Positions 19,241 to 28,762 of a DNA stretch of 64,000 bases are shown in pieces. The notes below the pieces were generated by a model. It was given only the letters and a program-made list of their open reading frames with translations, was not told where the DNA came from and made no database searches. The position numbers were made by a program, and so were the translations under genes. Origin of the DNA: Octopus vulgaris. Taxonomy: Eukaryota. The stretch covers positions 170,376,001 through 170,440,000 of the forward strand of contig OX597814.1 in the NCBI GenBank assembly GCA_951406725.2, written 5' to 3'. Position 1 is the first letter of the stretch. Every line of letters starts with the position of its first letter.

Positions 19241-22131
19241 AAAGAAGCCCATCGTGTGTGTTTGAATCTCTGTAACTTAACAGTTTGGCAAAAGAGGCTG
19301 ACAGAATAAGTACTAGGCTTACAAAGAATAAGTCCTGAGCTTGATTTCTTCGACTAAAACCCCTTAAGGCAGTGCTCCAGCATGACCACAATCAAATTAC
19401 TGTAACAACTAAAAGAATAAGAAGAATGTTATTTTTATATTGGTCACTTAAATATCGTTCATAATGTAGTTTTCTTCATTTTTTTTTTTTAAATTTCTTT
19501 TATGTGTTTGTTAATTTGTTATTCTTCATCTAATATTAACATGGTCAGTGGTTTAGACATCACAGTTTTTTTTTTATTACCATCTGTGTATCATTATGCA
19601 TAATATTTTTCATCTGAAACAACTGTTAAATCTAGTAACATTTTAATGGTCAACAAGTTACACGTACACACATTTAAAGATATTTTACTATTGTAATAAC
19701 GGTTTGCCTCTAAATTACGTGTTTTTTATTTTTGTTTTTTTTTTTTTTTTCCATTTTCCTCTTAAAACTAGTTAATGGAGATCAATCTTCTGTTTGTTAA
19801 TTTTATCCTTTCTCACATCTTTTGAAAATAAACTTTGGTTATTTCCTTGTGGTTTTTCTTTCCTTTTCATATCTAGTGATGCCATTTGATTGATTTTAAA
19901 ATAGTCAATTTATAGATTTGCTTTTAAGTACATATTTTAAAGTTGCGATAGTATCTTTTTATTTATTTATTTTTTTTATTTATTTATTTTTTCCAAATTT
20001 TCTTTTATTGGATTTTTAATTCAGAAAATGTTTTGGTGTTTAAAATGAGGGTACTGTTGCTAACCAATACTCAACTTGAATACTATCATTTTCTTTCACA
20101 TCATTGATCTGACCATCTTGCTGTTAATGACTTAACTAAAAAAAAAATTTTTTAAAAACATTTTGTTTACTTGAAATTTTGTTCAGGAAATAAAAGCCAG
20201 AATTCTTCATCAGTTTATTCTTGACCTAGCTATGGGTTATAGATATCTAGCTTTTCTGGGTAAGTTATATGAAAGATTATCATGCTGTTCAGATGGTCAA
20301 GATTTGTCTGTCTTCCACTTGGTACTGTCTTGTGGGTGAAGAAAGAGTTAATTACTAGAATGCTATTGTCTCCAAAATGTAAGTTGCTGTTCCTCTATTT
20401 AGGTTTTAGGATTGATTCAGTTAATTTTATACCCTTGTACTTTATACTTGCTTGAACAAATTGACCCTAGTACTTATATTTTTTTTTAAAAGTCTGATAG
20501 ACAGATATTTTTATCAATCTCTTGCTGAACCACTAAGTTAGCAGGACATAAACTAACCATCACCAGATGTCAAGCAGTGGTGGGAACAAGCACAGCTGCA
20601 ACGACACACGCAACATAAAGAGTTTCTGTACTGTTTCCATCTACTGAATCACTAACAAGACATTGGCTGATCTGGAGCTATAGTAGAAGACTCAAGATGC
20701 CACGCAATGATGCTGAAACCACATGGCTGTGCCATCGAGATGATTTTTCTAAAGATGTCTTTATTGCAGCTAATTGAGTAAAACTATGAAAACTATTCCA
20801 ACCATGATCATCTGACTTAAAATCAGATGTAGTATAATCCAGAACAGTATTATCCAGTATATCTTTCCAGGGAGATTTGGTTATTGTCATTATTTCTAGC
20901 AGTTCGAGTGACTATTTAGAACTTCTCTTATTGCTTGTGTTGTTATCTTCCTGAGGAGTCAGTATAGTGAATGTCAACAAGACTGAACTATGAACAAAAT
21001 CTGGGAAGCATTGCTTGTAAAGTATCCAGATAGAATATCTTCTCCATTTTTAACAATTCTACCTCCAATATTTTTGGTATAAATTCATAATTTACTTTAA
21101 TCCCTTAGCTTTTAAACTGGCCGTATCTGGCCCAGATATGTCTCCTGTTTTAAGTTCAAACTGGCCAGGTCTAACTTCTCACACCTACCCTACAATGTCA
21201 TCCTAAAACTAGACAATAACATCATTGAAATCTCAAAGCTGTGAGACAACACATGATTAATTCAAAATTATGAATGAATAAGCTTTTCATTTGGCAGAGT
21301 AATTTTGCACACTAAAGGATTAACGATATTCTTTACTGACAGTTTTCTCAAGTACATCATGTTGGAATAAATATTGAGCTACAAACTGTACATGGTAATT
21401 TCTAATTCTTACATGTCAGTTCATTTTTGTTTAGAAAGCCAAAGGAACTACTTGCTCAGAGATGGGAATTATTCCAAAGAATTTTTCTGGCATTTAAAAT
21501 TTTGCTCTTCTATGTCATGTATGCATGTGTGTGTGAGTGGTTTTTTTTAATTTTATTTCCTGCTGCAGACAACTGAATGAAAGAGAGAGGGAAAGAGAGA
21601 GAGAAAGATGAGAAGTGATATAAAGGAAGCATTAACGTTCTTTCCACTCTGGAGAGATGATTAAAAAAAAACTTTTTTTTTTCTCTTCACTTCCTGTCTC
21701 CTTAGTATGCAATGTTAGCACCTAATTAATTCTCTTCTAAAACTACTAGATGGCAAAGGATAATAAATAGATAATACCAGGCTTTCACAATTTTATTACC
21801 TGTCGCTGGTTGTTTTTTACATCATCATCATCATCATCATTATTATTATTATTATTATCATCATCATTATCATTAACATCAGAAACTTCATAATTACCAT
21901 CATTTATTTTAATTATTTTTGCCAGAAATATCTTCTATTGTAATTGTTAGCTATAATCTTTAACGATTGTGTTTCTGTCAATTTTGTTTTATAAGATAAC
22001 ATATTTTTACTGGTGAAATAAAACTATTTTTAAAAGCCAAAAAAACAAAGGGTATTTATTTATTCTTCCCAACTAAATAAAGAAGAATAATTATTTGACT
22101 TTTCCTTCATTTATTTATTATTTATTTTCAG

Positions 22132-22149
22132 TGATTGGTGATATCAAAA
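22132..22149 (+). other. Candidate 18-nt microexon (5'UTR)
   Basis: Long U-rich tract ending TTTTCAG, then TGATTGGTGATATCAAAA, then consensus donor GTGAGT. Splice signals are the only evidence. Confidence 0.3.
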
Positions 22150-23798
22150 GTGAGTGATTACAAGAAAAGGTGTGAGGAAATGTGATATTTTGACTGACTA
22201 GGCACTAGTAATGTGAAATTGTATTGGGTAGGAACTAGAAAAAGGTTGTTTCACCTATGTGAACCTTCAATAATGCATCATATAAGTATCATTAATTCAA
22301 CCCCTTCATTAGCAGCATCACTCATAGGACCAACCACCTCTACTCAGATACCTGACCTGGTAGGAATAGCAGTTAAATTTCCTTCAAAAATACACCCTAC
22401 AGTCTTAAGGAAAGGAAGGCCACACTGGATTTTCAAAAGGAGCTAGCTGGTTATAGATAAAATGTCTTTGATTATAGATCTGTCTGCTTGATCAGGGATA
22501 GCCTGAGACTAATTAACAACATTATTACATAATTTATATCTACTATAACCTTATTTATTTATTTAGTATTTTTTGTTTTTCAGCCAATTGGTTTCAGGTT
22601 CAGTCACATTGCATGGCACCTTGGGCAAGTGTCTTCTATTATAACCTTGGGTCGACTAAAGGTTTATCAATGAATTTGGTAGGTGAATATTGAGAGAAGT
22701 TTGATGTGTGTGTGTGTGAGTTTGTATCTCCTTGTCTTGATGTGTGATTGTTGCAAGCAAGTCTCACCATCATACAAATACTGTCCTTTATTTGTGATCT
22801 TCAATAAGAACATGTCCAGCCATGGCAGAAATATTAGCTTTCTTGGTGACAAGAAGGGTGTCCAATTCTAGAAAATCTGCCTCAACAATTCCATCCAACC
22901 CATGTGAGCATGGAAATGTGGATGCTAAAACAACAACGACGATGGTGGTGGTGATGATAATGATGATGACGAAGATAATCAAGAGGAAGATAATGACTTT
23001 CCTTTCTTATTCTTGATAAAAGTGCTTTAGCTTGTTGGTTATTTTATCATTAACCACTCTTGTTGTCAACAGCTGTGTCTAAAGTATTAATCATTGAGGT
23101 TAATTATTCAGAGATGTCATCTACATGAAAATTAGTAAGTTAATACTACATATTTAATGCAGGGAGCATTAGAACTCTAATTACAAATAATTGTGTAAGA
23201 ATGACAAAAGACAAAAACATTAGCGCTGCAACTAATATCATTTTAATCATTTCGGTAAATAAATGTTTAGAAGTGTCTTCCTTCCTTCCTTGCTGAAATG
23301 ATTAATATAGGCGCAGACATGGCTGCGTGGTTGTTAAGAAGCACTCTTTGCAACCACGATTTTGGATTCAGTTTGTATGTGAATTTGGTAAATGGAAACT
23401 GTGTGGAACCTCATCATATGTGTGTGTGTGTGTGTGTTTGTGTCAAGTTTCATGCATACAGTGTGTAAATATAAGAGGTGTGGGTTCGAGTCCCATGCAT
23501 ACAAGAAACCCACTTTTTTTCCTTTGAGGACTGTTTGCCCCAATATTAGACTATTTTCTTTAGTCAATACACATTGATCACTTATAAGCTTTAAGCTTAT
23601 AAATATTATTATTATTATTTACAGAAATGTCACTTGTCACTGCTTCTCAATTTATTGCAGAAAACATACATACATACATATTTAATCATATCAAAGGGAA
23701 ATGGAATTTAATTAAAATTAAAAACATTTAATTAAAATTTACATTTCCAGTGGTCTAACGTGTAAAAAGATTTAGCCAAAAAGGCTATATATTAGTCA

Positions 23799-24264
23799 TA
23801 CGATGTAGTGTATATTTAAACACATAAGGAATCCACTTATAGGAATTCTACATGCTAGAAAGAACAGCTAAGTTCTATAACCACAAAAATTGGGGATAAA
23901 ATTCGGAAGGAATAAATTTGGAAATGAAAAACATTTACCATCTAGTTTCCTGGACCAATCCAAGGAAAAGTTAGTTTGTATAAACACGAGACAAGTAGTC
24001 TTGTTTGTCTCATGTGGATATGTTTAACACTAGGTTGGACCTGCTGAAGAAAATCAGACCTTGTGAGTTCTCCTTGACTCACTAAAAGAAGATTAGAAAC
24101 CAACTGGTCCAGGAAACTAGATGGTAGATGTTTTTCATTTCCAAATTTATTCCTGTCAAATTTTATCCCCAATTTTTGTGGTTTACACAACCTAGCTGTT
24201 CTTTCTAGCGTGTAGAATCCCTATAAGTGGATTCCTTATGTGTTTAAATATACACTATATTGTA
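23799..24264. repeat. Long inverted repeat (about 160-bp arms, about 147-nt spacer) at the end of an AT-rich interspersed element
   Basis: 23799-23957 is the reverse complement of 24105-24264 with about a dozen differences. The upstream body (about 23685-23813) recurs at about 27907-28038. Confidence 0.9.
24034..24117 (+). ncRNA. Type I hammerhead ribozyme motif
   Basis: Stem I CCTG(24040-43)/CAGG(24110-13). Core CTGAAGA at 24044-50. Stem II AATC..GTGAGT/ACTCAC..GATT. GAAA at 24096-99. Stem III ACC-AACT-GGT. GUC cleavage triplet at 24107-24109. The stem II closing pair is a non-canonical A.A. Confidence 0.7.
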
Positions 24265-24283
24265 CATACATACATACATGCGA

Positions 24284-24395
24284 ATGGCTTAGCGGTTAGG
24301 GTGTTATACTCACAATTGCAAGATCGTGGGTTTAATTCTCAGACCGGGCATTGTATTGTGTTCTTGAGCAAAGCACTTCATTTCACGTTGCTCTA
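24284..24395 (+). mobile_element. tRNA-derived SINE head, family 4 (CORE/Meta-like)
   Basis: TGGCTTAGCGGTTAGG...GGGTTTAATTCTCAG...TTGTGTTCTTGAGCAAAGCACTTCATTTCAC. Related copies at about 29395, 33880 and 48770 (- strand). Confidence 0.65.
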
Positions 24396-24553
24396 CAGTC
24401 ATTTCATCAGCAGACATGTGGCACATGGGTGCACCTGTACAGGTAATGTCGCTCATGTGAACATTATAAACAAATCATCTGTGTGGTTGTTCAGTAAGAA
24501 ATTGCTGAACGCTCATATGTCATCTAACGATGGGAGAGTCCACGACATGATTA

Positions 24554-24920
24554 TCTATTATATAAAATCTGTTGTCTGTCTGTGTGTGTGTGTGGCTTCT
24601 AGGATCTTAGGCATCCTCCATCCGATTGCACTCAAATTTGATATGTAGATACCAATGGTATCAGGGTGTGTATAAGTCTTGAAAAAATTACAAAAATCAA
24701 TTCCAGGTGAGAATGCAATCGATAAAGCTGTGGGAAATCGTTTTCCTTTGGAATAGAAAAAAAAAGTCTATCTTTATTTCTTCTTTTGCTGGTGTCTCAA
24801 ATTTAGGTTAAATCAGTGTTTCTCAAGGGGGAGACCTATGGGATGGTCAGACAAGTTGTTTTGAGAAAATTTGGTTTAAACTCAGCACTGTCCATTGGAG
24901 GTGGGGCGTTTTGCTCGTGT
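24554..24920 (+). mobile_element. Helitron-like element, 5' part
   Basis: Starts A|TCTATTATATAAAATCTGTTGTCTGTCTGTGTG, the same 5' architecture as 841-1959. The 3' end was not identified. Confidence 0.5.
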
Positions 24921-25497
24921 ATATATATATAACTACTGGTATTGGGATGTAAACATCCCAACTTCGTGATCAGGCAAAAGGAAATGTTAGAATAACTACC
25001 AGACTAGAAAATAAGTACAGGAGTTAGTTCAACTAAAACCCTTCAAGGCAGTGCTCCAGCATGGCCGCAGTCCAGTGACTGGAACAAGTATAAAAGATAA
25101 AGATAATAATTGTCATTGTGCTAATGTCTTTTCCTCACCACATAGTAATTCTTTTTATTTTATTTTTTTTCTATACTCACTTCATCAAATATGTTAACGC
25201 TAACTTAACTATGTTTCTGTCTGTTTCACTTCCTGCAAGTACAATTTGCCACACAGTTTTGCTATTTTCTTTTCGTAGCTGGCAGCATGATTGTAACTTA
25301 GTAAGTTCTGAGCAAAGCAAGATCTTAATCTGGTTTCGTTGTCTGATGGATCTATTTCAATTACATCACTTATTTGTAGCTTGAATGGTTATCTTTCCTG
25401 GGTGTAAGGGGCAGGAAGCTTTTCAGTATGTATTAACAAGCGAGTGCTAAGTCAAGAAGTTCACACTCCAACCACCAACATTGTCTGTCAGCCTCCC

Positions 25498-25528
<31 letters not shown>

Positions 25529-26514
25529 AGAGCCATGGTGTTTTTGGTACTAGGCAAAGCTATTTTAAAAAAAATTACACATATATACATGTGTGTGTGT
25601 GTGTGTGTGTTTGTAGTATGATGATGATACATATTTAAACGTACATTTTATCTCATCTTCATCCAACCATTTTAACTTCCTTTTCTGATTTCTAATCCCT
25701 ACAATTTAGAAAAACAATTGAATGTATATACCATCAGGTAAATCTATTTACTCACTAAATAGATGGTTTCAATAAGTTTTTTTCCTTCTTCTAATTTTGA
25801 TAATGATGGAGAACAAAGATTACATATATATATATATATATATATATAAGTATATATCATCATCATCATCGTTTAATGTCCGCTTTCCTTGCTGGCATGG
25901 GTTGGACGGTTTGACTGAAGTCTGACAACCCAGGAAGCTGCACCTGGCTCCAATCTGATCTGGCAGGGTTTCTACAGCTGGATGCCCTTCCTAACATCAA
26001 CCACTCCGAGAGTGTAGTGGGTGCTTTTTATGTGCCACTGGCATCGATCACGCTCGAATACTGATTTTTATGTGCTAGTTGCACAGGAGCCAGTCTGGTG
26101 GGAGTGGCATTGACCATACTCAAACGGTGCTTTTTACATGCCACTGGTATCGGCCATGATTTCACTTGACTCAACAGGTCTTCTCAAGCACAGCATATTG
26201 CCCAATGATTAAAGGGTACTCTTAAAGGCAGTACCTCAGCATCACTGCATTCTGATGACTGAAACATGCTAAAGAAAGATATATATATGTATGTATACAG
26301 ACATAGTAACAATATACTAAAAAAAGTGAGTGCTCAACATTGCATGTGTAGGTAAATATTTTTTTTTAATAGTAGAGTGTTGTCAATGTGATACACTAAT
26401 GGCTTGATGCAGATATATTCACAATTGTTCAGTTGTAGTTACAGTTATAGACAAGACACTCTCACCTAAAAGTCACTATTTAAATATGGTTATCTATCTA
26501 TATATATATATATG

Positions 26515-26792
26515 GCCCCCGTGTTGGTGGCACGTAAAAGCACCATCCGTTCATGTCCATTGCCAGCCTCGCCTGGCCCCCGTGCCGGTGACACGTAAAA
26601 GCACCATCCGTTCGTGGCCGTTTGCCAGCACCCACTACACTCACGGAGTGGTTGGCGTTAGGAAGGGCATCCAGCCGTAGAAACACTGCCAGATCTGACT
26701 GGGCCTGATGAAGCCTTCCAGCTTCACAGACCCCAGTTGAACCGTCCAACCCATGCTAGCATGGAAAACAGACGCTAAATGATGATGATGAT
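26515..26792 (+). mobile_element. Young family 3 retroposon copy
   Basis: Near-identical to 8004-8284 except for one deleted internal repeat unit; (GAT)n tail. Confidence 0.8.
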
Positions 26793-27106
26793 ACAAATAT
26801 TCTATAATTATAAACATAATTATAATTAGGGGTCAGCTTATTGCTTCACCACATACTGAATTTAGAAATAGGAGTTAAAAATTCCTTTTCTACTACTGTA
26901 AGAATCTCCACGCCAGTAACACACTTTTTTACATAGGCAAAAAGAAAACTAATGAATCAAGATGTGCTAATTCATTCTAAAAGTTGTGGAGACTTTTACA
27001 GTAGTAGAAAAGGAATTATTAACTCCTATTTCTAAATTCGGTATGTGGTGAAGCAATTAGCTGACCCCTAATTATAATTATGTTTATAATTATAGAATAT
27101 TTGTAT
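26791..27106. repeat. Long inverted repeat (121-bp arms, 74-nt spacer)
   Basis: 26791-26911 is the reverse complement of 26986-27106 with about 5-6 mismatches. Confidence 0.9.
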
Positions 27107-27136
27107 AATTTTACCCTTTTATTATTAATATATATA

Positions 27137-27865: not shown

Positions 27866-27909
<44 letters not shown>

Positions 27910-28433
27910 CATATCAAAGGGAAATGGAATTTAATTAAAATTAAAAACATTCAATTAAAATTTACATTTCCAGTGGTCTAACGCGTAAAACAATTTTAGT
28001 CAAAAAGACTATATATTAGTCATACGATATAGTGTGTATATATATATATATATATGTTTAGCTACAGCAAGGAATTGTCTACTTTATACAGTAAAATGGA
28101 TGTAAAACAGCTGGCTGCTATTAAAACTGATACCTTTTTTTTTTTCATTTTATTGATAAAATAACCACAATTTATCAAATAACCAATTTTGGCAAAAAAA
28201 TATGTATGTATAAATCTTTATTCTGATAGCCCGTCTATTAATAGAAATGTGCCTAGTGATTAATTTATTTTTTCTGGAAATTTCTAAATGAATTTTTAAT
28301 TAGTAGCTTTTTTTTTTTTATCACTTTAAGTCAATAATTTAGCCCCTATTTTGGCTAAATTTATATATACAATTTTGGCTAAATATATATATATACAATT
28401 CTATATTTAATTATTTTTCAGATTCTATAGATA

Positions 28434-28476
28434 ATGGAGAACAGATCAAAACCTACAAATCAGGATGAAACCAAAA
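28434..28476 (+). CDS. EZH2: Putative first coding exon of EZH2 (MENRSKPTNQDETK, ends phase 1); exon starts 28422 or 28431
   Basis: Acceptor TTATTTTTCAG, in-frame TAG 6 nt before the ATG, good context ATAATGG, consensus donor GTAAGT. Phase 1 matches both downstream exons. No homology support. Confidence 0.65.
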
Positions 28477-28762
28477 GTAAGTCATCAAACTTGACAAAAA
28501 ATCTTGTTTCTCTTTTTGCTCCTTTTTTTTATTGTCTGTTGTTGTATTCTCTCTGTCTTTTTTTTTTGGCTTTTTTATTTTTGTATTTTATTTTGCAAAA
28601 CTAACACATTACAATTTGTAATCAAAATGAAGAAATGGAAAAAAAAAGTAAATGAAAATTAATTTCTGAGAAAGAAAAATACCATTGACAATTAAACAGC
28701 ATGATATAAAGATTATTCTCATTCTGTCTGGTTTATAACATAAATCCTGGTTACTATAAACA

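Follow-up and report, generated by a model that had tools for sequence, protein, structure and literature searches.

What is a hammerhead ribozyme motif doing inside a long inverted repeat upstream of EZH2 in the genome of Octopus vulgaris, and does the repeat belong to the ribozyme? The motif lies in a 64,000-nt stretch of DNA (the window, whose coordinates are used throughout), for which a first-pass annotation, made from the sequence alone, had proposed a ribozyme-processed hairpin retroelement with an antisense arm that may switch cleavage off. We consider it quite probable that the locus is a single insertion of a dispersed non-coding family with a unit of ~497 nt and a conserved hammerhead, likely a retrozyme-like parasite of Penelope enzymes, and that the hairpin was likely born at insertion. 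Directly established in this reading are the structure of the unit, the fixed 3′ ends, the microsatellite flanks, the divergent arms made from one template and the covariation of the ribozyme.

The insertion takes up 585 bp (23680–24264), since the left arm outruns the inverted repeat and reaches about 23680. Its parts and neighbours are the following.

23664..23679, plus strand: (CATA)n flank; a second copy is at 24264–24279, making it a candidate target-site duplication within a microsatellite.
23680..24264: whole insertion; two divergent 5′-truncated pieces of the ~497-nt non-coding unit, 3′ ends outwards.
23680..23959, minus strand: inverted arm; unit positions ~228–497, starting inside stem III and ending at the distal preferred 3′ end of the family.
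23799..23957: left strand of the 160-bp inverted repeat; partner 24105–24264.
23960..23964: inversion junction; five unassigned bases between the arms (sequence read against the family alignment).
23965..24264, plus strand: forward arm; unit positions ~90–389, ending at the proximal preferred 3′ end of the family.
24030..24120, plus strand: type I hammerhead motif with an extended helix I and a two-part helix II; predicted cut after 24109.
24095, plus strand: additional A, conserved, that separates helix II from GAAA and faces the variable base 24051.
24099..24108, plus strand: stem III; in the family a perfect 10-nt palindrome, broken in the locus copy by T>C at 24104.
28434..28478, plus strand: first coding exon of EZH2; all 15 residues agree with the matched EZH2 protein.

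With (CATA)n on both sides of the insertion, a target-site duplication is indistinguishable from the microsatellite itself. The inverted repeat is as had been described, with its 3′ arm starting at 24105; the two strands have 92.5% identity over 160 columns, enclose a loop of 147 nt and are predicted to fold into a rod of about −269 kcal/mol. The ribozyme had been placed in the loop of this hairpin, which is true of its core only: the arm contains the cleavage site together with the 3′ strand of stem I. The inverted arm has no ribozyme core. A second short piece of the family, also lacking the ribozyme and 89.5% identical to the left arm, is found on the minus strand at 27889–28050; its (TA)n end lies some 385 bp upstream of the EZH2 ATG. 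Another foldback in the window (26788–27109, with 124-nt arms, 95% complementary, and a 74-nt spacer) has a MITE-like look and is unrelated to the hammerhead family.

The type I topology claimed for 24030–24120 is present in every element: stem I (24040–43/24110–13), CUGAAGA (24044–50), stem II (24052–55/24091–94, with A24051 facing A24095), GAAA (24096–99), the ACC-AACU-GGU of stem III and GUC (24107–09); the core, C3 U4 G5 A6 N7 G8 A9 / G12 A13 A14 A15.1 / U16.1 H17, is complete. A motif descriptor, composed once the motif had already been seen, gave one match in the window and none in 100 block shuffles. The Rfam hammerhead models, which the first-pass annotation had put forward as a check on 24020–24130, gave no match at E ≤ 10 in that interval, in 22000–26000 or in a copy of the family's old subfamily with a G10.1–C11.1 pair. 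Stem III is one base off a palindrome, as had been noticed: the base is the C at 24104, found in two of 56 rows that were not picked on the stem III motif, and it takes the predicted intermolecular stem III helix from −13.0 to −7.6 kcal/mol. Competition between duplex and ribozyme is likewise borne out in computation, as in nearest-neighbour folding the monomer's active fold comes out 6.9 kcal/mol less favourable and, with the left arm present, 19.6 kcal/mol less favourable, i.e. about 12.7 kcal/mol more. The locus copy is probably inactive: its ribozyme is single (no tandem of two), the palindrome is broken, and the cleavage site is covered by an antisense arm.

The family to which this copy belongs is dispersed and ORF-less, with a unit of 30–32% GC defined by mapping loci on one natural copy. 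An 18-mer across stem III has 417 exact matches in the genome versus none for its reversed control; a DNA search of the genome gave at least 1661 first-look candidates (a lower bound, no copy number), with the best 40 places at 89–100% identity. An older subfamily has the same unit and the same ends as the young one; two natural monomers are identical at 402 of 465 aligned bases, and single copies go down to 70–78%. The loci were picked by likeness to the locus copy (L001–L029), by the stem III motif (L031–L060) or by the 5′ part of the unit (L092–L120), so the frequencies given here are no genome-wide estimates. Duplicates of the same place (L030, L035, L040, L041, L053, L059 and L091) were omitted, and the comparison of arms and tandems omits eleven more.

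Among 83 distinct insertions, 42 have a head-to-tail junction, in both subfamilies and with no ORF between units, and 37 have an inverted arm; partial tandems and inverted segments are the insertion anatomy of Penelope. Two complete ribozymes in tandem were found in a single insertion (L097). No long tandem arrays were found among the 83, the longest arm having ~1.8 units, and the same-strand motif pairs L151 and L152, fetched as array candidates, are partial tandems. The outer 3′ ends fall mostly (95 of 119) into two clusters ~105 nt apart, and 74 of 88 terminal ends run into a microsatellite, a count that omits 102 internal read-throughs. Neither the unit nor the joints between tandem units contain an RT or GIY-YIG ORF; the family lacks the telomerase-like RT plus GIY-YIG ORF of an autonomous Penelope-like element (PLE). 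The retroelement of the annotation, non-coding and equipped with a type I hammerhead, a stem III that is palindromic and inversion in the style of Penelope, is supported by the family at large. Short hairpins at window positions 23987–24017 and 24215–24234 apparently keep their pairing between subfamilies, as judged by eye.

The proposed ribozyme structure was laid on 53 aligned copies, where 89.6% of the cells are paired, versus 21–40% for slid controls. Changes on both sides were seen in 10 of 27 pairs, including three of the five in proximal helix II; the copies being related, these counts stand for few lineage events. Helix III and proximal helix I are nearly invariant, with about a third of the rows picked on that motif. 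The family motif has the three covarying helices and the open helix I of a type I hammerhead, and the covarying, family-wide ribozyme on which the first-pass annotation had staked its reading is there. Within the core, N7 takes all four bases, U4, G5, A6 and A9 are kept in 75–79 of 79 rows, and G12, A13 and A14 in 54–56 of 56. The 3–8 pair is C–G in 44 of the 79 parsed rows, U–G in 21 (U3–G8 hammerhead cores are weaker), U–A in 10 and C–A in four; the Fisher p of 0.013 ignores kinship and includes about four misregistered rows, and the core table omits copies missed by the motif parser (e.g. L093, L101, L102, L106, L113, L116). U3–A8, a known natural hammerhead variant (PMC4209133; PMC3088659), arises two or more times on a tree made from the sequences with their core masked, which is no more than suggestive, as there are C–A singletons too.

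The A·A closure of stem II, which had been taken as a possible sign of decay, is a trait of the family, since an extra A stands ahead of GAAA in 77 of 79 rows, across subfamilies, and faces a variable base; the pair that follows it is G10.1–C11.1 in the old subfamily. With the extra A before G12 there is no paired 10.1–11.1 directly at the core, and motifs without such a pair were rejected in PMC3088659 unless activity had been measured. A mismatched base of helix II (U·U) is on record for the axolotl ribozyme HHR_Amex2, described as cleaving weakly as a monomer and well as a dimer (PMC7229834). No insertion before G12 is among the core variants described in text passages of PMC3088659, figures and supplements apart (these are 2a/2b, A6a, U13a and an insertion between 9 and 10.1), nor did the literature searched for extra core nucleotides give one; a similar variant may be present among the ribozymes aligned in the supplements of PMC4209133 and PMC7229834. 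Judging from the aligned copies, the ribozyme is under selection in the lineage of the family. A CUGA/UCAG hairpin and a GGACC/GGUCC pairing that occur in the best fold of the monomer were considered as a conserved switch and rejected, as they are not kept in the old subfamily.

We propose the following life cycle. Rare copies with two complete ribozymes in tandem would be transcribed, and the transcripts would cleave as a dimer via the palindromic stem III; the monomer set free in this way would circularise. Both strands of a TA-rich microsatellite would then be nicked by a Penelope RT/GIY-YIG protein, and each nick would serve as primer for cDNA that starts at one of two internal sites lying about 105 nt from each other; copying would pass the ribozyme site and continue into the next unit. 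Both cDNAs would be kept and joined at their truncated ends, leaving a divergent inverted repeat of random overlap. Inverted 5′-truncated copies and partial tandems are reported as typical of PLEs (10.1101/2021.04.23.441226); the purified PLE protein PAc is reported to cleave and extend both strands, with AT-rich DNA preferred and two internal start sites (PMC11167929), and a circular-template model was proposed in PMC4209133. In its strongest form, the proposal sees in the family a circular RNA that actively parasitises Penelope enzymes and whose core is an undescribed variant requiring the A between C11.1 and G12; its hundreds of insertions would record how RT set out on both nicked target strands, from two fixed internal start sites, and went on round the circle. 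That form is tentative, and we lean somewhat against it. Several observations speak against the retrozyme model, among them the single double-ribozyme tandem among 83 insertions, the lack of Rfam recognition, the computed cost of the active monomer fold, the search for an autonomous partner among sampled PLE loci (described next), which found none, and the ~105-nt distance between 3′ ends, to be compared with the 30–40 bp of the optional PLE tail that comes from two RT start sites (PMC11167929).

Autonomous GIY-YIG PLEs are abundant in the genome; an open frame of 781 aa is present in many of them, and some have (TA)n at their end. The best 30 of 148 scored GIY-YIG matches, taken with 1.5-kb flanks, have no sequence in common with the family, whether compared by BLAST, by tblastn or with the family covariance model, the last run on these sampled loci. 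The dominant autonomous Penelope-type family has a minimal hammerhead of its own, with a U3–A8 core and a short palindromic helix III, in its 3′ repeat; this minimal hammerhead is found downstream of the GIY-YIG matches at L065, L067–L073, L075, L083, L085 and L090, and a related motif is part of another repeat (L005, L046, L079).

Does the cycle need cleavage at all? None of the 30 copies picked 3′ of the cut site begins there, and the 131 mapped 5′ ends have no truncation peak at it, so that the template must have been intact at the site, as either a circle or an uncleaved multimer. It may be that PLE enzymes mobilise uncleaved multimeric transcripts, with the ribozyme a relic or rarely needed and no circle formed. 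This explains the intact cut site equally well, because unprocessed RNA was the main substrate of PAc in vitro and ribozyme mutants were still inserted; the PAc ribozyme, moreover, is reported to have required protein for cleavage (PMC11167929). The report that eight of nine Xenopus retrozyme dimers failed to cleave (10.64898/2026.07.22.740005) also keeps this alternative alive, as do the mixed units of some old tandems and the frequency of U3–G8 cores in the family (21 of 79). Against it, the core and the helix pairing were kept, with compensatory changes, while the subfamilies diverged, and the cut-to-cut monomers folded as circles are more stable than shuffles (z of −3.1 and −3.7, though the antisense strands reach −2.7 and −3.0). 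On balance we regard mobilisation of uncleaved multimers as rather unlikely and prefer the retrozyme-like cycle. Between tandem units of the old subfamily, 29 of 122 polymorphic sites are unlike, three loci accounting for most of them, and one circle per tandem therefore does not fit every case. In these loci (L097, L111 and L129) the units differ at 6 of 18, 4 of 7 and 6 of 6 family-polymorphic sites, unlike most tandems; template switching between RNAs or later recombination may have mixed them.

Another possibility is that the copies are 5′-truncated pseudo-LTR remnants of an unsampled autonomous PLE rather than a self-propagating non-coding unit. The insertion anatomy is that of PLEs, the sampling of partners covered 30 of the 148 scored matches, and most genomic PLE hammerheads are reported to be single truncated remnants, some of them in opposite-strand pairs 100–700 bp apart (PMC4209133). 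Yet the end of the unit is joined straight to its own start in the 42 insertions with a head-to-tail junction, and the unit has no RT or GIY-YIG match; we therefore find the remnant explanation improbable, and a non-coding unit that propagates as such preferable.

The two arms of one insertion differ at 18 of 221 family-polymorphic sites in the young subfamily and at 8 of 102 in the old one, versus 44–45% between insertions; a single template was therefore copied into both arms, in one event. Elsewhere the divergence between arms is 6.5–7.3%, near the 7.5–10.3% between insertions. Two linked polymorphic differences at the locus had hinted at arms from two different RNAs, an option that the comparison of arms rules out for the family at large. 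All inverted insertions but one (36 of 37) are purely divergent, with the 3′ ends outwards and with breakpoints scattered over the whole unit. The breakpoint pair of the locus is repeated in none of the other 36, L010 being close. The stem III palindrome was considered as an inversion hotspot on the strength of four of 30 copies and rejected on the flat spread of the 131 5′ ends, which number 3, 3 and 4 per 10-nt bin around stem III and the cut site, like other bins.

The 160-bp hairpin is thus likely a by-product of insertion and no switch. It is not a feature of the family either, as it had been suspected to be, since 46 of the 83 insertions have no inverted arm and the breakpoints are scattered. 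The reading in which the antisense arm is a kept functional part, one that toggles or silences cleavage and makes the element tolerable in an EZH2 transcript, could draw on several features of the locus: the arm covers 24105–24120 and raises the cost of the ribozyme fold as computed above, the ribozyme is on the EZH2 strand, and the sequence before the ATG would allow a 5′-UTR intron. It fails on the family, where the arm is missing from more than half of the sampled insertions, 5′ ends do not pile up near stem III, and the arms decay uncompensated, differing by 6.5% at ordinary sites, near the 7.5% between insertions. At the locus itself each arm has 7–8 differences from the family majority in 170 columns, and a lone ribozyme with a 3-bp stem III is probably dimer-dependent anyway, to go by PMC4209133 and PMC7229834. 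We regard a switch as very improbable; the competition between arm and ribozyme is an accident of one copy and no conserved device. A DNA transposon of foldback or MITE type whose terminal inverted repeats span 160 bp, suggested by a long inverted repeat enclosing a short spacer, can be set aside almost with certainty, given that the repeat is not terminal (the left arm is ~120 bp longer), that its length and position vary by copy, that most copies have none, that the polar ends lie in microsatellites and that the 83 insertions share no fixed terminal inverted repeats. An insertion-born hairpin in a retrozyme-like element is left as our preferred account.

The EZH2 exons of the window match a protein labelled Octopus sinensis EZH2; the N-terminal coding exons start at 28434, 45033, 53407, 57361, 61003, 62733 and 63352 (spanning 28434–63666), and the first three are micro-exons of 14–19 codons. 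The first-pass annotation had put the ribozyme in the sense strand of the EZH2 locus. The strand is indeed the same, but the element ends 4.17 kb upstream of the ATG and outside the coding introns. It is possible that it lies in a 5′-UTR intron, since an acceptor-like ag precedes the ATG by about 12 nt; a CpG profile did not locate the promoter. The contigs of four sequencing runs (two of them RNA by guess, two unlabelled) contain pieces of the family of 82–161 nt with several differences each, and no empty insertion site was found among the joints seen in them. The unique flanks of the locus have no cover in the two RNA-guess runs, which is uninformative either way on transcription of the locus. 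We conclude that the locus is probably a dead copy without a demonstrated role in EZH2. Among 37 candidate frames of the window, 36 had no Pfam match and the one that did is an EZH2 exon. On its minus strand, a low-repeat stretch at 2679–2957 has a protein-like frame interrupted by stops, and a homologue search with the protein-like part (2747–2932) came back empty; on its plus strand it has a canonical splice donor near 2950.

We found no description of such a hammerhead ribozyme, retrozyme or Penelope ribozyme from an octopus or other cephalopod in the literature searched (Repbase and subscription papers outside its scope). The closest relatives in organisation are the metazoan non-LTR retrozymes, known from coral, mussel and axolotl (PMC7229834) and from a vertebrate survey (10.64898/2026.07.22.740005). 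Like them, the octopus family is non-coding, low in GC and resident in a genome that contains PLEs; its units join head to tail, and its type I hammerhead has a helix III that is palindromic. HHR_Amex2 shows that a mismatched base of helix II can go with cleavage (PMC7229834). The unit is longer than the circles of 170–400 nt in PMC7229834 and inside the range of 51–972 bp in the vertebrate survey (10.64898/2026.07.22.740005). Unlike the metazoan retrozymes, the octopus copies are dispersed, with up to ~1.8 units per arm and no arrays, and are described here from DNA; they have two fixed 3′ ends, microsatellite targets, frequent inversions and a long, two-part helix II with a constant extra A before GAAA.

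The canonical EN+ PLEs (Penelope/Poseidon, and PAc of Anolis) share with the family the partial tandem, the inverted 5′-truncated copy, targets rich in AT, two alternative 3′ ends and a hammerhead that has a base between positions 9 and 10.1 as well as a palindromic helix III. The octopus unit differs from what is described for these elements in having no RT–GIY-YIG ORF and 3′ ends ~105 nt and not 30–40 apart, and it has no match to the pLTRs of the 30 sampled PLE loci. As to the core, covariation from C3–G8 to U3–A8 and the G10.1–C11.1 of the old subfamily link the family to PLE minimal hammerheads with a U3–A8 core, such as that of Schistosoma Cercyon (PMC4209133), and to natural core variants (PMC3088659). 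The extra base between 11.1 and G12 sets the family apart from the core variants in text passages of PMC3088659 and PMC4209133, figures and supplements apart, and makes it a natural hammerhead variant that Rfam misses.

Mobilisation of retrozymes by Penelope proteins is presented in 10.64898/2026.07.22.740005 as a hypothesis drawn from co-occurrence and pLTR similarity, with a mechanism yet to be worked out. The octopus family puts the insertion marks of Penelope on an ORF-less ribozyme unit, with both inverted arms from one template. Should it be an active circular-RNA parasite, it would offer direct evidence that PLE proteins move retrozymes, and a 0.5-kb substrate for learning how the tandem and inverted ends of Penelope form. 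In sum, the family resembles a metazoan non-LTR retrozyme in how it works and a PLE in how it inserts.
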